From sequence record NC_027395.1: 64,000 nucleotides of DNA. One strand, 5' to 3'. Source of the DNA: Escherichia phage vB_EcoP_SU10. A program made the position numbers and the translations under genes. Below, one piece after another: positions 1 to 28,600 of the stretch. Numbering within the stretch: the stretch's first letter is position 1; each line of letters begins with the position of its first letter. A model generated the notes under the pieces. It saw only the letters and a program-made list of their open reading frames with translations, had not been told where the DNA came from and did not search any database.

Positions 1-210
1 AGCCTTTCTCTCACTCTTTAAAGGGGTACTAAATAAACGGGTAGTTAATGAATAGGATGGTATACACGGGGAAATAACTACGGGGAGTAGGCACGGGGAA
101 AGGTGGAACGTTGAAAGGGAAGGTAAAGGCATTGCCAATAACCCTTTTTTAAATGAGGACTCCCCTTTTTTAGGAAACACGCGGGAAGCGGCTAGCCCCA
201 CTCAGTCAAA

Positions 211-238
211 TTGAAATTTTAAACTCTTATATATAAGG
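211..238 (+). promoter_or_regulatory. Candidate sigma70-like promoter (TTGAAA, 16-nt spacer, TATAAG)
   Basis: Hexamers read at 211-216 and 233-238, upstream of the first small ORF; sequence-only guess. Confidence 0.3.
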
Positions 239-252
239 TTGAAAGAGAAATT

Positions 253-417
253 ATGTGGAAAATTAAGTTAATCATTAAGCAATTCAAATGCGATCATGAA
301 TACTATCGGATACGCAAAGCTTACGGGGATGAAAGAGTTCACACCCTTTATAAGTCCACTTGGAGATGTAGTAAATGTGGTAAGCTTAAACACAGCACAT
401 GGATGGATAGGCCTTAA
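253..417 (+). CDS. Small Cys/His-rich protein (54 aa), not in ORF track
   Basis: ATG 253 to TAA 415-417; contains C-x-H and C-x2-C; weak RBS. Confidence 0.3.
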   Translation: MWKIKLIIKQFKCDHEYYRIRKAYGDERVHTLYKSTWRCSKCGKLKHSTWMDRP

Positions 418-548
418 CGTGACATGGCCTTTATGACTAAGCCTTAACATGAAGTCCCCTTTATGACATACCCTTTACTTCAGCGTACACGGGTTGTTGG
501 TATGAGGTGGCCTTTACGGGTAGGTCTTATGATGTACCCTTTATACTC
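411..548. repeat. Degenerate direct-repeat array (27-bp unit x2 plus CCTTTA core x5)
   Basis: GCCTTAACGTGACATGGCCTTTATGAC (411-437) vs GCCTTAACATGAAGTCCCCTTTATGAC (441-467); CCTTTA recurs at 428, 458, 471, 511, 537. Confidence 0.5.
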
Positions 549-568
549 TTATTCAGAGGAGAAGAATT

Positions 569-823
569 ATGAATTTAGTATTAGACTTTTTATCAGAGAT
601 GGTGCCTCGGTTCAGAACAGAGACATACGCTTTCGTAATCAACAGTGACTCTGAAGAAGGGATGGAAGCTATATGCTTAGGTCGTCTTGTTGATTTAGAT
701 GATGAAACAGATTTCGATATTACAATTGATGTAAGTAGTTTTGGTTGGCTCTTCTTCAGAGCATTCCGCACTTACAGAAAAGAAACATACAAAGATTACA
801 GCAAGGGAGATACAAATGAATAA
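569..823 (+). CDS. Hypothetical protein (84 aa)
   Basis: ORF with GAGGAG RBS 7 nt upstream of ATG; overlaps next gene by 8 nt. Confidence 0.45.
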   Translation: MNLVLDFLSEMVPRFRTETYAFVINSDSEEGMEAICLGRLVDLDDETDFDITIDVSSFGWLFFRAFRTYRKETYKDYSKGDTNE

Positions 824-1448
824 TTTAATCCAAGCGATGGACCTTAACGATTACAATTCACAGCTATGTCGCTCTGGTTGTAGTTTACAGCATTTAGAAA
901 CTATGGGAAATGTTTCAGGATTGGCTGTACAAGATTTATATAGTGGAAGTATTCTTAAACCAACTATTACGGAGAAGAAAGATATGATGAGTTTAGTAGA
1001 ACAATACCGTGGACTTCAAGTCGGTACTATTGGTGATAAATATGAGAACTACTACAAAGATCGCTCAAAAGTACTTGAAGAAGTTGCACGGGCTAAGCCT
1101 TCTACTCTAGAAGTAGTTGAATACGAGTCTACTAAACATGACCATCTCCCTGACTATGCTCGTGCAATGATTGAGATGATTGAAGAAGCTGAATATGAAA
1201 TGCTCCATGACTACATTACCTCCAAAGATGAATGGCATCGTGATGTTCGAATCGAAGAAGATGGTACAGAAACAATTACGTGGATTCACAAGAGTGAGTT
1301 AGTAGACGACGCACTGCGAGACTACGAAAAATTTTTGGTCGACGGCTCTATTCTTTTAGAGGAAGAGAAGGGTGCAGAACTTCCGTGGGAAGGTGAGACG
1401 ATTGCTCTAGGTAAGATGTTTAACCTGTCCGTTGGTGATTGTAAGTAA
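816..1448 (+). CDS. Hypothetical protein (210 aa; start moved to ATG 816 with AGGGAGA RBS)
   Basis: Track ORF 741-1448; internal ATG preferred because of RBS and the upstream overlapping gene. Confidence 0.5.
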   Translation: MNNLIQAMDLNDYNSQLCRSGCSLQHLETMGNVSGLAVQDLYSGSILKPTITEKKDMMSLVEQYRGLQVGTIGDKYENYYKDRSKVLEEVARAKPSTLEVVEYESTKHDHLPDYARAMIEMIEEAEYEMLHDYITSKDEWHRDVRIEEDGTETITWIHKSELVDDALRDYEKFLVDGSILLEEEKGAELPWEGETIALGKMFNLSVGDCK

Positions 1449-1453
1449 TATTT

Positions 1454-1480
1454 GCCTCCGTTGGGAGGCTTTTTGTGTTG
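1454..1480 (+). terminator. Rho-independent terminator
   Basis: GCCTCC-gttg-GGAGGC hairpin followed by TTTTTGTGTTG. Confidence 0.6.
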
Positions 1481-1504
1481 TTGATAATGTAGAAGGAGTA
1501 TAAA

Positions 1505-1978
1505 ATGTTTGGAGAAAACGGAGAACTCACGCCTGCACAGGTAGCTGAGATTACAGGAAGATTACCCGGAGTAACGGAAGAACTCGAAAGCCGTGGTATG
1601 AACCCAAGCAATGGGAAGTTTCAAAAGGGAAATAAATTCGGACGACCCAGAGGTAGTAGAGGTAAACTGACACAATTAATGTTGGACCGTGTTGCTGCAA
1701 GTCATTTGTCTCCTGATGAAGTGTTAATTCAAATTTACGAAGATCCTAATATTCCACCTGATCTTAGATTCAAGGCTGCATCAAAAGTTGCAGATCTGGT
1801 ATATCCTAAGGCGGCCTCTGTTGAAGTTAAGATTGAGGAAGAGAATGTAATCAACGAAGAATCATTGAATGCACAAATCAAGGACTTCTTGACTGGAGCA
1901 CTTGGTATCGACGTTATGCCTCCAGAAGAAGACAACTCTGAGGACGCTGAAAAGGGGGAGGAAGCGGACGAGAGTTAA
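1505..1978 (+). CDS. Hypothetical protein with acidic C-terminus; possible small terminase subunit by position
   Basis: GAAGGAG RBS; immediately upstream of terminase large subunit; no motif recognised. Confidence 0.5.
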   Translation: MFGENGELTPAQVAEITGRLPGVTEELESRGMNPSNGKFQKGNKFGRPRGSRGKLTQLMLDRVAASHLSPDEVLIQIYEDPNIPPDLRFKAASKVADLVYPKAASVEVKIEEENVINEESLNAQIKDFLTGALGIDVMPPEEDNSEDAEKGEEADES

Positions 1979-2139
1979 GTAAAGGAAACAGGGAGCTGTC
2001 GAAGATCATCTGATTAACAATCTAAGGATTGTTATAGTTTTATTGCCACGATGTTCTTTTGCAGTGTACCCTTGTAGTGGAGAGGGGAGGTTCTTTGACG
2101 AAGGGACTTTCCCTTTTCTATTTTTAAACTGGAGGAAGT

Positions 2140-3681
2140 ATGTCATTAGATAAACAAATTTATGAAGCTCTAACTGGTAACAACCTTAGTGTAGAGGAAA
2201 AGAAAGCACTATTGAATATGTTGAAAGAGCGTGACCAATGGAGGAAGTATAATAAGATTTTGTCTTTCAAGGCGTATGACTTCCAAAAGAAATTTTATGC
2301 AGCAGGATTGAAGCATCGCTTTAGATTCTTGTGTGCAGCGAACCGTGTTGGTAAATCTTACAGCGAGGCATACGAGTTTGCTTGTCATGTCACAGGTCGC
2401 TACCCAACTTGGTGGACAGGATATAAATTTAAAAGACCTATCTTAGCATGGGCAGTTGGTATTACAGGGGATTCCACAAGGAAAGTATTGCAAAAGGAAT
2501 TGTTTGGTACACCTATCGGAAAGGATACAAATTTATTGGGGACAGGTGTCATTCCTCGTGATGCTATCGTCATTGACACGATAGAACGAGATGGTAACAA
2601 ACTTCAAATCGTACAAATCAAACATCAAAATGAAAGAGGAGAGTTTGACGGTTTAAGTACATTAGAATTCCGTTCAACCCAACAGGGTGAACACACATTG
2701 ATGGGTGCAACAGTTGACTACATTTGGTTAGACGAAGAAGATCCATACGAGTCTATGGCTATATTCGCACAGTGCGTCACACGTACACTCACAACTAAAG
2801 GTCTAGTTACAATTACGGCTACACCAGAGAACGGTTTAACTGAACTGGTAGATAAATTTATGAAAGGTGAAGGGGATGAGAACACAGGTTCTCTATATTT
2901 CCAGAATGCTTCTTGGTGGGATGCTCATGCAGACCTAGGTGGACATATCACTGACCAAGATATAAAAGATATGACTGAAGGTATTCCAGCGTGGCAGTTA
3001 GAGATGCGTTCAAAAGGTATGCCATTGTTAGGAAGTGGTTTGATTTATGATGTATCGGATGACACAATTAAATGTGAACCATTCGAAATTCCTGATACGT
3101 GGAAACGTGTCTGTGCAATTGATATTGGTATTGATCACCCAACTGCTGCTGTTTGGACAGCTTACGATGCAAACACGGATACTATCTATGTTTACGACTC
3201 ATATAAAGAAGGTGGCTTTACTCCAGTGTATCATGCTCCAGCTATTAATGGTCGTGGTCAGTGGATTCCTGTCATCCTACCGCACGATGCGGACAATATT
3301 GAGAAAGGTAGTGGCTCATCTGTTGCTCAATTCTATAAGAATGCAGGAGTTAACGTGCAGAGTGAGACCTTCTACAACAAAATTGGAATGGATGGTAAAA
3401 AGAACTTCTTTGTAGAACCGGGAATCACAGATATCAGAGAAAGAATGATGAGTGGACGCTTTAAAATCTTTAACACAGCCGCTAATGCTAAGCTATTCGA
3501 AGAGAAAGCTAGATATCACCGTAAGGTTGGTAAGATTATTAAAGAACATGATGACTTAATGGATGCAATGCGCTATTCAGCGTGCTCTGTTACACATCGT
3601 GGTCGCTCTAAACATGACGTTAGCTACGGAAGTGCTTCTCTGTATGAGGCAAACGTAAGCAGATGGAATCAGAGTTACTAA
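2140..3681 (+). CDS. terL: Terminase large subunit
   Basis: 513 aa; Walker A-like CAANRVGKS near N-terminus; position ahead of portal. Confidence 0.85.
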   Translation: MSLDKQIYEALTGNNLSVEEKKALLNMLKERDQWRKYNKILSFKAYDFQKKFYAAGLKHRFRFLCAANRVGKSYSEAYEFACHVTGRYPTWWTGYKFKRPILAWAVGITGDSTRKVLQKELFGTPIGKDTNLLGTGVIPRDAIVIDTIERDGNKLQIVQIKHQNERGEFDGLSTLEFRSTQQGEHTLMGATVDYIWLDEEDPYESMAIFAQCVTRTLTTKGLVTITATPENGLTELVDKFMKGEGDENTGSLYFQNASWWDAHADLGGHITDQDIKDMTEGIPAWQLEMRSKGMPLLGSGLIYDVSDDTIKCEPFEIPDTWKRVCAIDIGIDHPTAAVWTAYDANTDTIYVYDSYKEGGFTPVYHAPAINGRGQWIPVILPHDADNIEKGSGSSVAQFYKNAGVNVQSETFYNKIGMDGKKNFFVEPGITDIRERMMSGRFKIFNTAANAKLFEEKARYHRKVGKIIKEHDDLMDAMRYSACSVTHRGRSKHDVSYGSASLYEANVSRWNQSY

Positions 3682-25673: not shown

Positions 25674-28600
25674 ATGGCTAACATTAAACCGTGGGAAGAA
25701 GCTTCCAAAGCTCCTGCGTATCTGAATGCCTCTCCGGAGCAACAAGCTCAAATGAGAGAACAATATAAGGCAGCAGGTGGCTCTATTCCTGAGGAACAAC
25801 CAGTAGCACAACCACAACAAGAAGAACGTGGTGCTATAGGCGAGTTTGCTCAAGGTGTGTCAAATGCTCTTCAATCTGGTGGTGCAAATATTGCAGCTAG
25901 TGCTGCTAAAGGTATTGGTGGTTTAGTTGAGATTGGTGAGAATCTAGCTGGAGCACAGACTAGTTATGGTAAGCGTATCCAAGAGAACTCTCAGAACCTT
26001 CTGAAAGAACGTATGGATAAGATTGAGGATGGGATTGGCAAAACTGTTGGTCAGTATGCTGGCGTTGCTGGTGATATTGGTATGACTGTTGCTAACCCAT
26101 TGGCTGCTGCTGCTATCATCGCAGGTCGTGAGACGGGTCGTGCATATGCAGACCAAACCCCTGAAGAGGGAGAAGATAAGTCTATTCTAGATGCAGCCTT
26201 AGTTGGTGGTGCTAACTATGCGGCCCAGAGAATCCTTCCGGGTGCTGTCGGCACAGCTGAGTCCACACTTGGACGTATTGGTCAGAACGTTGCCAGTAAC
26301 GCAGTGGCTGGTGCTAAAGGTGGTGCTCTTGTTGGTGCTGCTGAAGTTCAGAACAAGTATGGGGATGACAATGATCTAGCTAAGACATTGGAAGGTGTTA
26401 TCGAAGAGGGGGCTATGGGTGCTGCATTTGGTGGTGCAGTTGGTGGGGTTCATGGTTTGATTAGCCGTCCGGATTCTGTTGTTTTCAAGAATACTCCAGA
26501 GTATGCGAAGACTGATATTGCTGCTGATGACGAACTGATTCGTAGTGCTAAGAATGTTGATGAACTGAAAGAGGCTTACTCTAAAGCTGAAACTGCTAAC
26601 GCTGCTTCTGCTCTGAACCTCCTCGATGAGAATGGGTTCCGTATTACAGATGCTGTTGCTGTAGATTCTCCTGCTGCTCAGCGTATTCTTAACACTGACC
26701 AAGCTCGTGCTGAGAAAGCTGCTTCTGTTCAGAAAGAACACTCCAACATTCCGGGCCTTAATCCTTTAGCTTCTCCTGCTAAGACTCGTGGTAAAGCTTT
26801 CGCTGATAACGAGCACAACCAGAAACAGGCTGTTGCTATGAAGGATGCGATGGCTGACTATACCAAGGATAACACTAAAGCTCTTACAGATGTTTTAGAT
26901 AACCTAGACCGTGAATTAACCTCTCTCCGAGCTTCTGGTGATTTTACTGGTAGTCCGATTGATATTAAGAATCGCACACAAGCTGACCGTGACTTCATTG
27001 ATGCTTACAAGACTTTCTACAATGAAGCAAATCGATTCAAAGCTCGTGAAGGTGAAGACTTCAATAACTTTGTAGAGAAAGCTGCTGAACTACAGAAGAT
27101 GGCTGATAATGTTTCTCCAGAGATGAAGAAAGCTATTGGCGGGTTGAAGAAACTGAAGGGTATGCCTGAAGGTTTTAATCCTATCCAAGATGCTTACACT
27201 CTGAACAATACAGCTAAATTTATGAGTAACCAAGATCGCGGTTGGACTTCCCTGACTGATGATGGTTTCCGTGAAGCTTCTTCTCCTAGCCTGGTAATGA
27301 ACACTCTCGGTGCTGCTAAGTATGCTCTGAATCGCTTCTCTTCTCAGCGTGCTCGTTCTCAACGTGTTAAGCAACAAGAGTCTAACAGTGAAGCTATCCG
27401 CTCTCTGGCTCGTGGTGATTTGGAAGTTGCTCGTGCTAAATCTACTGCTAATGAAGCTCGTGCTAAGATGGAAGAAGAACCAGCTGTTGATGACATTAAA
27501 TTTAAGACGCAAAATGATGTAGAAACCGAACCGGTTCGGGAGCCTTCTTCTAGTACTGTGACGGAAGAAAATCTTCCTTCTTCTGCTCCTCAAGAAACCC
27601 CTCTTACAGCTCGTGATTTAGTTGCGCAAAGACGTGCTATCCGTCAGGCTGAACAGCGTCGCGCTGAAGAAGAGGCAGCTGCTGCTCAAGAAGTTCCGGT
27701 TGAACAAGCTCCACAGGCTGAACCTCTCCCTGCTCGTAATCCTTTAGAGGAACGTCGTGCAATGGAACAGCAACGTGCTCAAGAAGAGGCCTCACAAGCT
27801 CCAGAACCAACCGTAGAGGAACCAACGGTCAAAGCTGAGCCATTACCTGCCCGTGCTCCTAAAGCTCCTAAGGAAGCTGTACAGGACGTTAAACCGGCAA
27901 GTGGTGTAGAACGTTTAGCTGCTATGTCTAGTGCTGCTCGTCAGGCTACTAAAGATCGTGCAGAACGCTTTGCTCGTTCTCTGTATTCTAAGGCTGCTAA
28001 GGCTAAAGCTACTGCTGAAAACTTCTTGGCTTATAAGGGCGATCCTAAGGAATTGATGCGTCGTATTCGTCAGGAAGATAATGCTATCAACACTGAACGT
28101 CATGAAGAAATGGCTCGTAACCAGCTGGCTTCTCAGCAAGGTATTGCTACTGCTAAGAACAACACTGTACGAACTAGTTTTGCTGAATGGGTTAAGGAAC
28201 GTGGTCTGCCAGAAGACATTGCTACTAAGGCATTACGTGCTGAAGAGAAAGGTTTAGGTGGGAACGTAACTAACTTGGATAGTCTGAAACGTCGTGCTGA
28301 AAGGTTGTATCAGAAGCAGCGTGAGGATGAGTTTGATAGATTATATCAACAAGCTCTAGAAGAGAACAAAGCTTTCGATAAGAAGGATGCTCCTAAACTG
28401 GTTGACCAGAAGAAAGAGCTTCAGTCTGAGATTGATGCTTTGATTGATTCAGAACCTTTACGTCCTGCTCAGAAAGATGCTATGCGTAAGCTGATGAATG
28501 ATTTTGTAGATGGGAAGTTTAAATCTTCAGAGAAGGCTGGTAGGGAAGAGGCTTTGGAAGTTGGTCAGATGAAGGATATTTGGGATGGGTTTATTAACAC

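Follow-up and report, generated by a model that had tools for sequence, protein, structure and literature searches.

The left end of Escherichia phage vB_EcoP_SU10 (SU10; record NC_027395.1) carries two clusters of short repeats, which we analysed in a window that comprises the whole stretch of 64,000 nucleotides (nt). The first cluster (64-193) is internal to the already known 193-bp direct terminal repeat (DTR) of the phiEco32/SU10-type coliphages, and the second is a conserved, head-to-tail array of 14-bp units that stands outside the repeat, upstream of the gene for the candidate small terminase (TerS; gene terS). We give a probability of about 0.5 to the reading, drawn from sequence comparison, that the AYGGGKW copies, the C-run/T-run core, the CT|AGCC boundaries of the repeat and the TGR-N5-CCTTWA array together make up a cis-acting packaging signal of the concatemer junction, that is, putative sites of terminase recognition and processing. 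The terminal repeat core was already known; what is new, and modest, is the array of 14-bp units, the concerted changes of the motifs, the sequence common to both repeat boundaries, and a C/T element followed by an array upstream of terS in distant phages. The features on which the argument draws are these (window coordinates):

1..193, no strand: left copy of the DTR (both-end alignment to relatives, DTR annotation in Paul and YF01, and PMC4281155, PMC9965538)
37..99, + strand: AYGGGKW motif set in the DTR, ACGGGTA at 37-43 plus three ACGGGGA (motif scan)
124..137, - strand: single inverted array unit TGGCAATGCCTTTA in the DTR (sole minus-strand unit match in the window)
142..172, + strand: CCCTTTTTTA - 11 nt - CCCTTTTTTA pair, most conserved core of the DTR (alignment and repeat search)
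192..197, no strand: right DTR boundary CT|AGCC (right-end flanks of phiEco32 and YF01)
404..543, + strand: seven-unit array TGR-N5-CCTTWA, head-to-tail (motif scan and 19-genome unit profile)
1505..1978, + strand: TerS candidate gp6, proposed reader of the repeats (directly upstream of the large terminase gene TerL, 2140-3681)

The array units lie at 404-417, 420-433, 434-447, 450-463, 464-477, 503-516 and 530-543, spaced 14 or 16 nt. A sequence-only reading of this DNA had reported five CCTTTA cores and a 27-bp direct repeat pair here, and both are present: the cores start at 428, 458, 472, 511 and 538, and the pair (489-515 and 516-542, 74% identity) forms the right half of the array and contains ACGGGTT (489-495) and ACGGGTA (516-522). 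Tandem Repeats Finder detects a 30-nt period at 411-467. Such a concentration is unusual: eight of the 44 CCTTTA sites of the window fall within its first 543 nt, and in 200 dinucleotide shuffles no 6-mer was ever seen five times in a 140-nt stretch. For the full unit TGRNNNNNCCTTWA there are nine matches in the 64 kb (2.83 expected), a number reached in none of 100 shuffles, and eight of the nine lie within 1-543.

All 19 relatives (out of about 95) to which the motif, array and orfA comparisons were applied keep the array, with four to seven units per genome. The profile of 117 units from these 19 genomes reads (t/c)(A/G)TG(A/G)-N4-(G/C)-CCTT(T/A)A; conservation is 96-100% in its TG and CCTT.A columns and 30-60% in those between them. 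The array motifs are under selection, as the motif columns are kept while the spacers and the saturated synonymous sites of the adjacent gene vary. Conservation in related genomes had been named beforehand as the test that could refute a role for the repeats, and its outcome favours function.

The region around the units is far less constant. The spacer between the first left-end gene (orfA, 253-417) and gp4 (569-823), in which the array lies, ranges from 107 to 431 nt among relatives, owing to insertions of three different small open reading frames (ORFs) between units, so this spacer is a hot spot for gene insertion. A hydrophobic 26-aa ORF (MEIIFWLVIVFCLFICFSIARCIKYD) is found between units in six relatives, 4E8 included, an acidic 46-aa ORF (MTEDELMNLIKVF...) in phiEco32 and one other relative, and a 36-aa ORF (MRFLKELHSLIYKD...), flanked by a duplicated ribosome-binding-site block (CTTATTCAGAGGAGAAGAAT), in five relatives, NJ01 included. 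The variable spacer, the three insertions, the changing number of units and the imperfection of the 27- and 30-nt repeats would all fit a functionless by-product, in which the array consists of decaying tandem duplications and recombination scars in an insertion hot spot. We consider this quite improbable, because the motif columns are held at 96-100% while spacers and neighbouring synonymous sites are scrambled, and because the units have a uniform orientation and six distant phages have kept a comparable array (see below).

Nearly all of the 98 phage records that match bases 1-3000 (megablast, 94-98% identity) belong to the phiEco32 group (genus Kuravirus, subfamily Gordonclarkvirinae), and nearly all are Escherichia phages; a pattern scan of IMG/VR for further relatives returned known isolates only. 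Window base 1 is base 1 of the record in phiEco32, Paul, YF01 and CHD5UKE1, whose records start at the genome end. In an alignment of window 1-260 with both genome ends of phiEco32 and YF01, the match of the right-end copies covers 1-193 and stops exactly after ...GCGGCT; the first 193 bases of each of these two phages equal its last 193. The terminal redundancy, for which a comparison with the far end of the genome had been proposed, is thus a 193-bp both-end match seen through close relatives (about 94-97% identity), the right end lying outside the 64-kb window. The boundary agrees with mapped termini, as a DTR at 1-193 is annotated in Paul (by PhageTerm) and in YF01 (from nanopore reads). 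phiEco32 was the first phage in which a 193-bp DTR was demonstrated, and in SU10, where it is of equal size, sequencing reads drop off sharply at the repeat ends and the termini analysis is published (PMC4281155); DTRs of 192-193 bp occur in 30 phages of the group, with about 130-170 as their most conserved stretch (PMC9965538). Window 1-193 is this Kuravirus element (as in phiEco32, SU10, Paul and YF01), with the identical start, the end ...GCGGCT|AGCC and the CCCTTTTTTA pair, and shows no difference in the repeat itself. The suggestion that the clusters are part of a terminal repeat therefore holds for the first one (64-193) but not for the second (411-548), which lies at least 211 nt further right, past a gene.

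The two DTR boundaries have the sequence CT|AGCC in common: the left one, in the concatemer context, reads ...GTGCT|AGCCTTTC, and the right one ...GCGGCT|AGCCCCAC. GGCT|AG at the right boundary is invariant in eight diverse relatives. The literature covered on the DTR, which did not include the primary phiEco32 papers (Savalia 2008; Pavlova 2012), makes no mention of these shared boundaries, of the ACGGGGA triplet or of the inverted unit at 124-137.

Inside the repeat, ACGGGGA occurs at 66-72, 80-86 and 93-99 (the sequence-only reading had the triplet and its first position right, but placed the second and third copies one base too high), and a fourth copy lies at 323-329. The triplet alone is only mildly unusual, since 16 of 200 (8%) dinucleotide shuffles of the 64 kb contain some 7-mer three times in a stretch of 40 nt. 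The wider motif ACGGGKW has 15 sites in the 64 kb (11.8 expected), seven of which, all + strand, fall within 1-522, and outside the DTR the AYGGGKW copies at 323, 489 and 516 keep this orientation. Among relatives, the 13 of the window type keep all three ACGGGGA copies, except XT32 (two exact copies), and in SU7, NC-B, PAS59 and ECBP2 the DTR copies are swapped together for ATGGGTA. The array copies change as well in SU7, NC-B and PAS59 (ACGGGTT to ATGGGTT or ATGGGTG), and ECBP2 retains one ACGGGTT in its array next to an ATGGGTT. Such a concerted change between ACGGGGA and ATGGGTA is what is expected of multiple sites for one co-evolving reader.

Similar motifs are found at the genome's opposite end. 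In the right-end unique region of phiEco32 and four further relatives, three AYGGGKW copies stand at an exact spacing of 29 nt, about 290-350 nt upstream of the right repeat, and a run of ATGGGGGA/GGGTA-type motifs, oriented as the DTR copies, lies less than 70 nt from the repeat boundary (in phiEco32 these groups are at 1460-1524 and 1740-1808 of the right-end locus).

The most conserved part of the DTR holds the two C-run/T-run tracts, which had been correctly located by the sequence-only reading: CCCTTTTTT at 142-150 and CCCCTTTTTT at 162-171. The 10-mer CCCTTTTTTA occurs exactly twice in the window (142-151 and 163-172), and this pair, 21 nt from the repeat end, is already described in the SU10 paper (PMC4281155). 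The inverted array unit at 124-137 is found in the 15 relatives with ACGGG-type repeat motifs, except 4E8, and a second minus-strand core (CCCCTTTA) lies at 19-26. As single-stranded DNA the DTR does not fold better than its shuffles (z = 0.20). A candidate hairpin of GGGGAGT (82-88) with ACTCCCC (159-165) was rejected, since its arms do not co-vary: the SU7-type repeats retain ACTCCCCC but lack GGGGAGT.

The comparison was extended to six distant phages whose TerS homologues share 49-62% identity with that of the window over the matched part: Salmonella phage 7-11, Cronobacter phage GAP52, Proteus phage Privateer, Aeromonas phage LAh_8, Pantoea phage TacPo2 and Vibrio phage SJSY21. All six are outside Gordonclarkvirinae (four belong to Grimontviridae, one to the genus Lahexavirus and one is unclassified), and counterparts of orfA, gp4 and gp5 were not seen upstream of terS in these six records. 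Each of the six has one CCCC(C)TTTT element (CCCCCTTTT) 270-590 nt upstream of terS. Units of the form TGA-N3-5-SSCAT on the + strand number three to six per whole locus (shuffle mean 0.3-0.5, maximum 3), of which two to five are between the CCCC(C)TTTT element and terS, so that the order of C/T element, array and terS is the same in all six as in the window. For example, the units of 7-11 are spaced 27, 27 and 26 nt. The distant units share 9-11-mers with units of the window (TGACATGGC, TATGAGGTGGC), and GAP52 and Privateer resemble the Kuravirus repeat boundary in having GCT|AG 20-27 nt past the C/T run. Homology of the window and distant arrays is plausible from these likenesses. Because the related arrays stand upstream of terS in genomes without orfA, gp4 or gp5 there, the array appears to travel with terS and the genome end, and not with orfA.

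Each of the distant lineages has a short-repeat cluster of its own upstream of CCCCCTTTT, such as three copies of TGTATGGATA in 7-11 (locus 900-990), CTATGGGATG and CTATGGAA in Privateer (locus 1700-1900), and two ATGGGGT, one ACGGGTA and one ACGGGGG in LAh_8 (locus 670-860). These short repeats may be counterparts of the ACGGGGA triplet, in parallel to the divergence between ACGGGGA and ATGGGTA within the phiEco32 group.

The distant arrays also bear on the level at which the units would act. As no terminator was found between orfA and gp4, the array is probably transcribed with both, and it could then act as RNA in the intercistronic region, in processing or translational control. The array RNA (400-575), however, does not fold better than shuffles (z = -0.19), and an Rfam search of 1-1600 gave no match at E <= 1; moreover, an inverted copy stands in the DTR and the distant arrays precede the terS promoter, both of which point to action on DNA and leave the RNA explanation a very small share of the probability. 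Motif columns kept amid variable spacers, no structure signal in RNA or DNA, and arrays upstream of distant terS genes together support a protein-binding (packaging) role. The sequence-only reading had likewise proposed candidate protein-binding sites, for packaging recognition, early transcription control or replication; these three lines of evidence fit putative packaging sites, and the other two roles keep a smaller probability.

Same-orientation tandem short repeats at a genome end also resemble iterons, and the repeats could be origin elements of this kind or serve the priming of end replication at the concatemer junction. The literature covered describes no origin for these phages, and the cumulative GC skew has its minimum at the genome end and its peak at about 32 kb. 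However, the skew changes sign at precisely the point at which the genes change orientation; it is therefore not independent evidence and was rejected as an origin indicator. The units are 14-16 nt long and abutting, and not 17-22 nt in helical phase; there is no adjacent initiator gene and no flanking AT-rich unwinding stretch (GC 0.45-0.46 over 401-550); and the conserved neighbour in all the distant relatives is terS, not a replication gene. We regard an origin role as unlikely.

The proposed reader, TerS, is far better conserved than orfA, gp4 and gp5: its identity across the 19 relatives is 91-100%, as compared with 53-100% for gp4 and gp5 and 60-100% for orfA. The two best PDB matches of the TerS family profile are the TerS of phage PaP3 (6W7T, E = 0.0056) and 7JOQ, deposited as a small terminase subunit (E = 0.022), and a published HHpred assignment agrees (PMC9965538). 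PaP3 TerS binds in vitro a 20-bp cos oligonucleotide (GCCGGCCCCTTTCCGCGTTA) that contains CCCCTTT (PMC7672466), a C-run/T-run theme that recurs in the cores of both the DTR and the array. PaP3 differs in being a cos phage with a single site, and the TerS match covers the oligomerisation core, not the DNA-binding N-terminus. Residues 29-40 of TerS differ (MNPSNG vs MEPSTG) in the ATGGGTA group and in 4E8, a difference confounded by phylogeny. The N-terminal ~30 residues of Kuravirus TerS (LTPAQVAEITGRLPGV, helix-turn-helix-looking; window 1505-1625 encodes residues 1-40) are absent from the homologues in 7-11, GAP52 and Privateer, in which a basic GKFxKGN..GRPKGSR segment and the core of TerS are conserved. 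This N-terminal difference might relate to the division between lineage-specific and shared DNA motifs.

If the packaging reading is right, the motif sets would be recognition sites in double-stranded DNA. On the side of the junction where the terminase genes lie, oligomeric TerS (gp6) would dock on the array, whose units share one orientation, and probably on the C/T-run core too, and the docked TerS would position TerL to nick both CT|AGCC boundaries, 193 bp apart. The 193-bp repeat would then be duplicated in the manner of T7, and packaging would begin at the left end, which fits the location of the early genes at the right end (PMC4281155). The lineage-specific component of the signal would be the AYGGGKW copies, which keep one orientation throughout the repeat, the array and the unique region at the right end.

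The same general layout is seen in phage T7. Its genome (NC_001604, read directly) has a 160-bp repeat with three copies of ACCTAAAG, followed by a CCTAAAG array with a 13-nt period. Both phages therefore have a short DTR (160 vs 193 bp) with 7-8-nt motif copies inside it (three in T7; three ACGGGGA and one ACGGGTA here) and then a same-orientation array on the unique side, and the arrays are alike in having units of 13-16 nt with a conserved core of 6-7 nt and variable spacers. But the T7 array begins 12 nt past the repeat and uses the motif of the repeat, whereas here the repeat and the array are separated by a promoter-like block and a gene, and the array unit is not the ACGGGGA of the repeat; the two motif sets meet only in one inverted unit in the DTR and two AYGGGK copies in the array. 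Homology with the T7 elements is not indicated, as the motifs differ (CCTAAAG vs CCTTWA/ACGGGGA) and SU10 belongs to Gordonclarkvirinae and not to Autographiviridae. The literature on the T7 pac site and concatemer junction yielded nothing usable on the T7 short-repeat arrays. Packaging in T7 uses the phage RNA polymerase, which the phiEco32-type phages lack (PMC4281155).

In other well-known systems, short repeats beside the terminase cut, on the terminase-gene side, are read by an oligomeric small terminase: the three R sites of lambda cosB, bound by gpNu1, the hexamer repeats of P1 pac, and the pacL/pacR boxes of SPP1. The position of the array is cosB/pac-like in this sense, as its seven units lie to the right of the 193|194 boundary and to the left of terS (1505). 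These are cos or headful systems, however, not DTR systems; the sequence, number and spacing of their units differ, and binding has been demonstrated there and is inferred here. Recognition of cos and pac sites is summarised in PMC7672466.

Several points weigh against a packaging role. The link between TerS and the repeats is drawn from position and conservation. Between the cut site and the array there are 211 nt and a gene, and the Kuravirus array is followed by two genes, a terminator and a promoter before terS is reached. Because the array probably belongs to an early transcript (orfA-gp4-gp5), it may act as RNA or as an operator. The right half-site (CCATC/GGCAT vs CCTTTA) and the spacer length of the distant arrays are not those of the Kuravirus one, and PhageTerm called the ends of Privateer a 'novel type' (PMC7881722). 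The likeness to the PaP3 cos site is a 7-nt match, which could be due to chance, and the relatives compared are a small share of those available.

The left-end genes and promoters around the array are listed here:

194..252, + strand: conserved promoter-like block upstream of the first gene (near-invariant alignment columns)
253..417, + strand: orfA, 54-aa protein (ORF kept across relatives)
556..561, + strand: gp4 ribosome-binding site GAGGAG
569..823, + strand: gp4, 84 aa, phrog_12698, first gene downstream of the array
816..1448, + strand: gp5, 210 aa (labelled 'ABC transporter' in some records, without Pfam support)
1454..1493, + strand: intrinsic terminator (1454-1469, with T run) and downstream of it a late promoter element of the gp36 type, TAATGTAGA (1485-1493)

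orfA is a real gene under purifying selection. It is found in all 19 relatives and in 95 phage records, matches phrog_7696 (E = 6e-17), and has a dN/dS of about 0.2, with 23/17/39 variable columns by codon position and synonymous sites that are saturated between the window and the SU7-type genomes. Residues C13, H15, C39 and C42 of its product are invariant, in a zinc-ribbon-like pattern; searches of Pfam and PDB gave no significant family or sequence match, only sub-threshold zinc-knuckle matches. Outside the group, the orfA search found two Synechococcus phage records, one Salmonella phage record (identity unconfirmed) and, as a weak match, an unrelated coliphage record of 35.8 kb. The region had been taken for a non-coding leader, which is true only of what remains after the terminal repeat (1-193) and this conserved protein-coding gene (253-417) are set apart. 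The phiEco32 record does not annotate orfA and has other frames instead (phi32_1, 296-496; phi32_2, 489-629; phi32_3, 565-744), and the first coding sequence of Paul (104-415) is over-extended into the terminal repeat.

The block upstream of orfA possibly contains the sigma-70 promoter that the SU10 authors predict there (TTGAAA at 211-216 and TATATA/TAAGGT at 228-239; PMC4281155, Table S2). TTGAAA and TAAGGT are spaced 17 nt (205-239) and score 8/12, and a promoter is annotated at the corresponding position of the 4E8 record; our consensus scan of 1-570 on both strands found no sigma-70 site scoring at least 9/12. In KM01 (205-290), NJ01 and 4E8, an insertion of about 43 nt (AGATATATACATCTTTATTTTTTATAAATCTGT) duplicates the AATTTTAAAC block of this promoter-like region between the repeat and orfA. 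For the phage sigma factor (gp36), the published promoter consensus is tAATGTAtA (PMC8948821). TAATGTAKA occurs six times in the window (1.6 expected), at 1485, 8993, 25627, 36234 (- strand), 36306 and 43026 (- strand), and never within 1-570; five of the six correspond to late or middle promoter entries of SU10 Table S2 (1485 is listed there at 1480), and 36306 (+ strand) does not. The sequences that this table gives for 177, 1480, 1980, 3679, 8988 and 25622 have the same coordinates in the window, which bears out its identity as SU10 or a nearly identical isolate, and the promoter matches bear out its transcription layout. Other short tandem repeats found by the k-mer cluster scan are inside coding regions: a GAAGATG-type repeat at about 6440, and GGTGCT, present at least five times at about 26208-26330.

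This arrangement raises the question of whether the units are operator or other regulatory sites of a left-end early operon, to which the orfA protein or a host factor binds to control gp4 and gp5 or to block read-through. The array lies between orfA and gp4, with its last unit ending 13 nt upstream of the gp4 ribosome-binding site; the last codon and stop of orfA (CCT TAA) form the first array core; the orfA protein is conserved and zinc-ribbon-like; and the SU10 authors class the genes of the orfA region as early, downstream of their predicted sigma-70 promoter (PMC4281155). A role of this kind nevertheless appears doubtful. Related arrays are found upstream of terS in the six distant phages, which show no counterparts of orfA, gp4 and gp5 in that stretch; an inverted unit and related cores occur inside the DTR; the sigma-70 scan found no site in the array on either strand; orfA has no significant match to a DNA-binding family or PDB entry; and the orfA types (MWKI/MWKL/MNLI) do not track the DTR motif variants across the 19 relatives.

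Were the repeats not packaging signals, a known terminal repeat and an unexplained conserved array would remain. The annotation of the left end is corrected, with 253-417 as the first real gene in place of the phiEco32 or Paul frames. As a compact and conserved candidate signal, the 140-bp array, the CT|AGCC boundaries and the core of the DTR offer concrete DNA substrates for assays of terminase binding and packaging, and the C/T-run element with its array marks the true genome start in many circularly permuted records of Kuravirus-like phages and Grimontviridae. More tentatively, and with a probability clearly below that of the packaging reading, the C/T-run element and the same-orientation TGA-N-CC array may be an ancient bipartite packaging signal that is common to Gordonclarkvirinae and the six distant phages and read by a PaP3-type TerS ring, with lineage-specific repeats (ACGGGGA here) setting the specificity. 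If so, the right repeat boundary of 7-11, GAP52 and Privateer is predicted at a GCT|AG-like site ~20-27 nt after CCCCCTTTT. The recognition, cutting and duplication of short DTRs are understood in outline, and mostly for T7, which employs its own RNA polymerase, whereas phiEco32-type phages do without one; an ancient bipartite signal would give short-DTR phages without such a polymerase their first defined site of terminase recognition.

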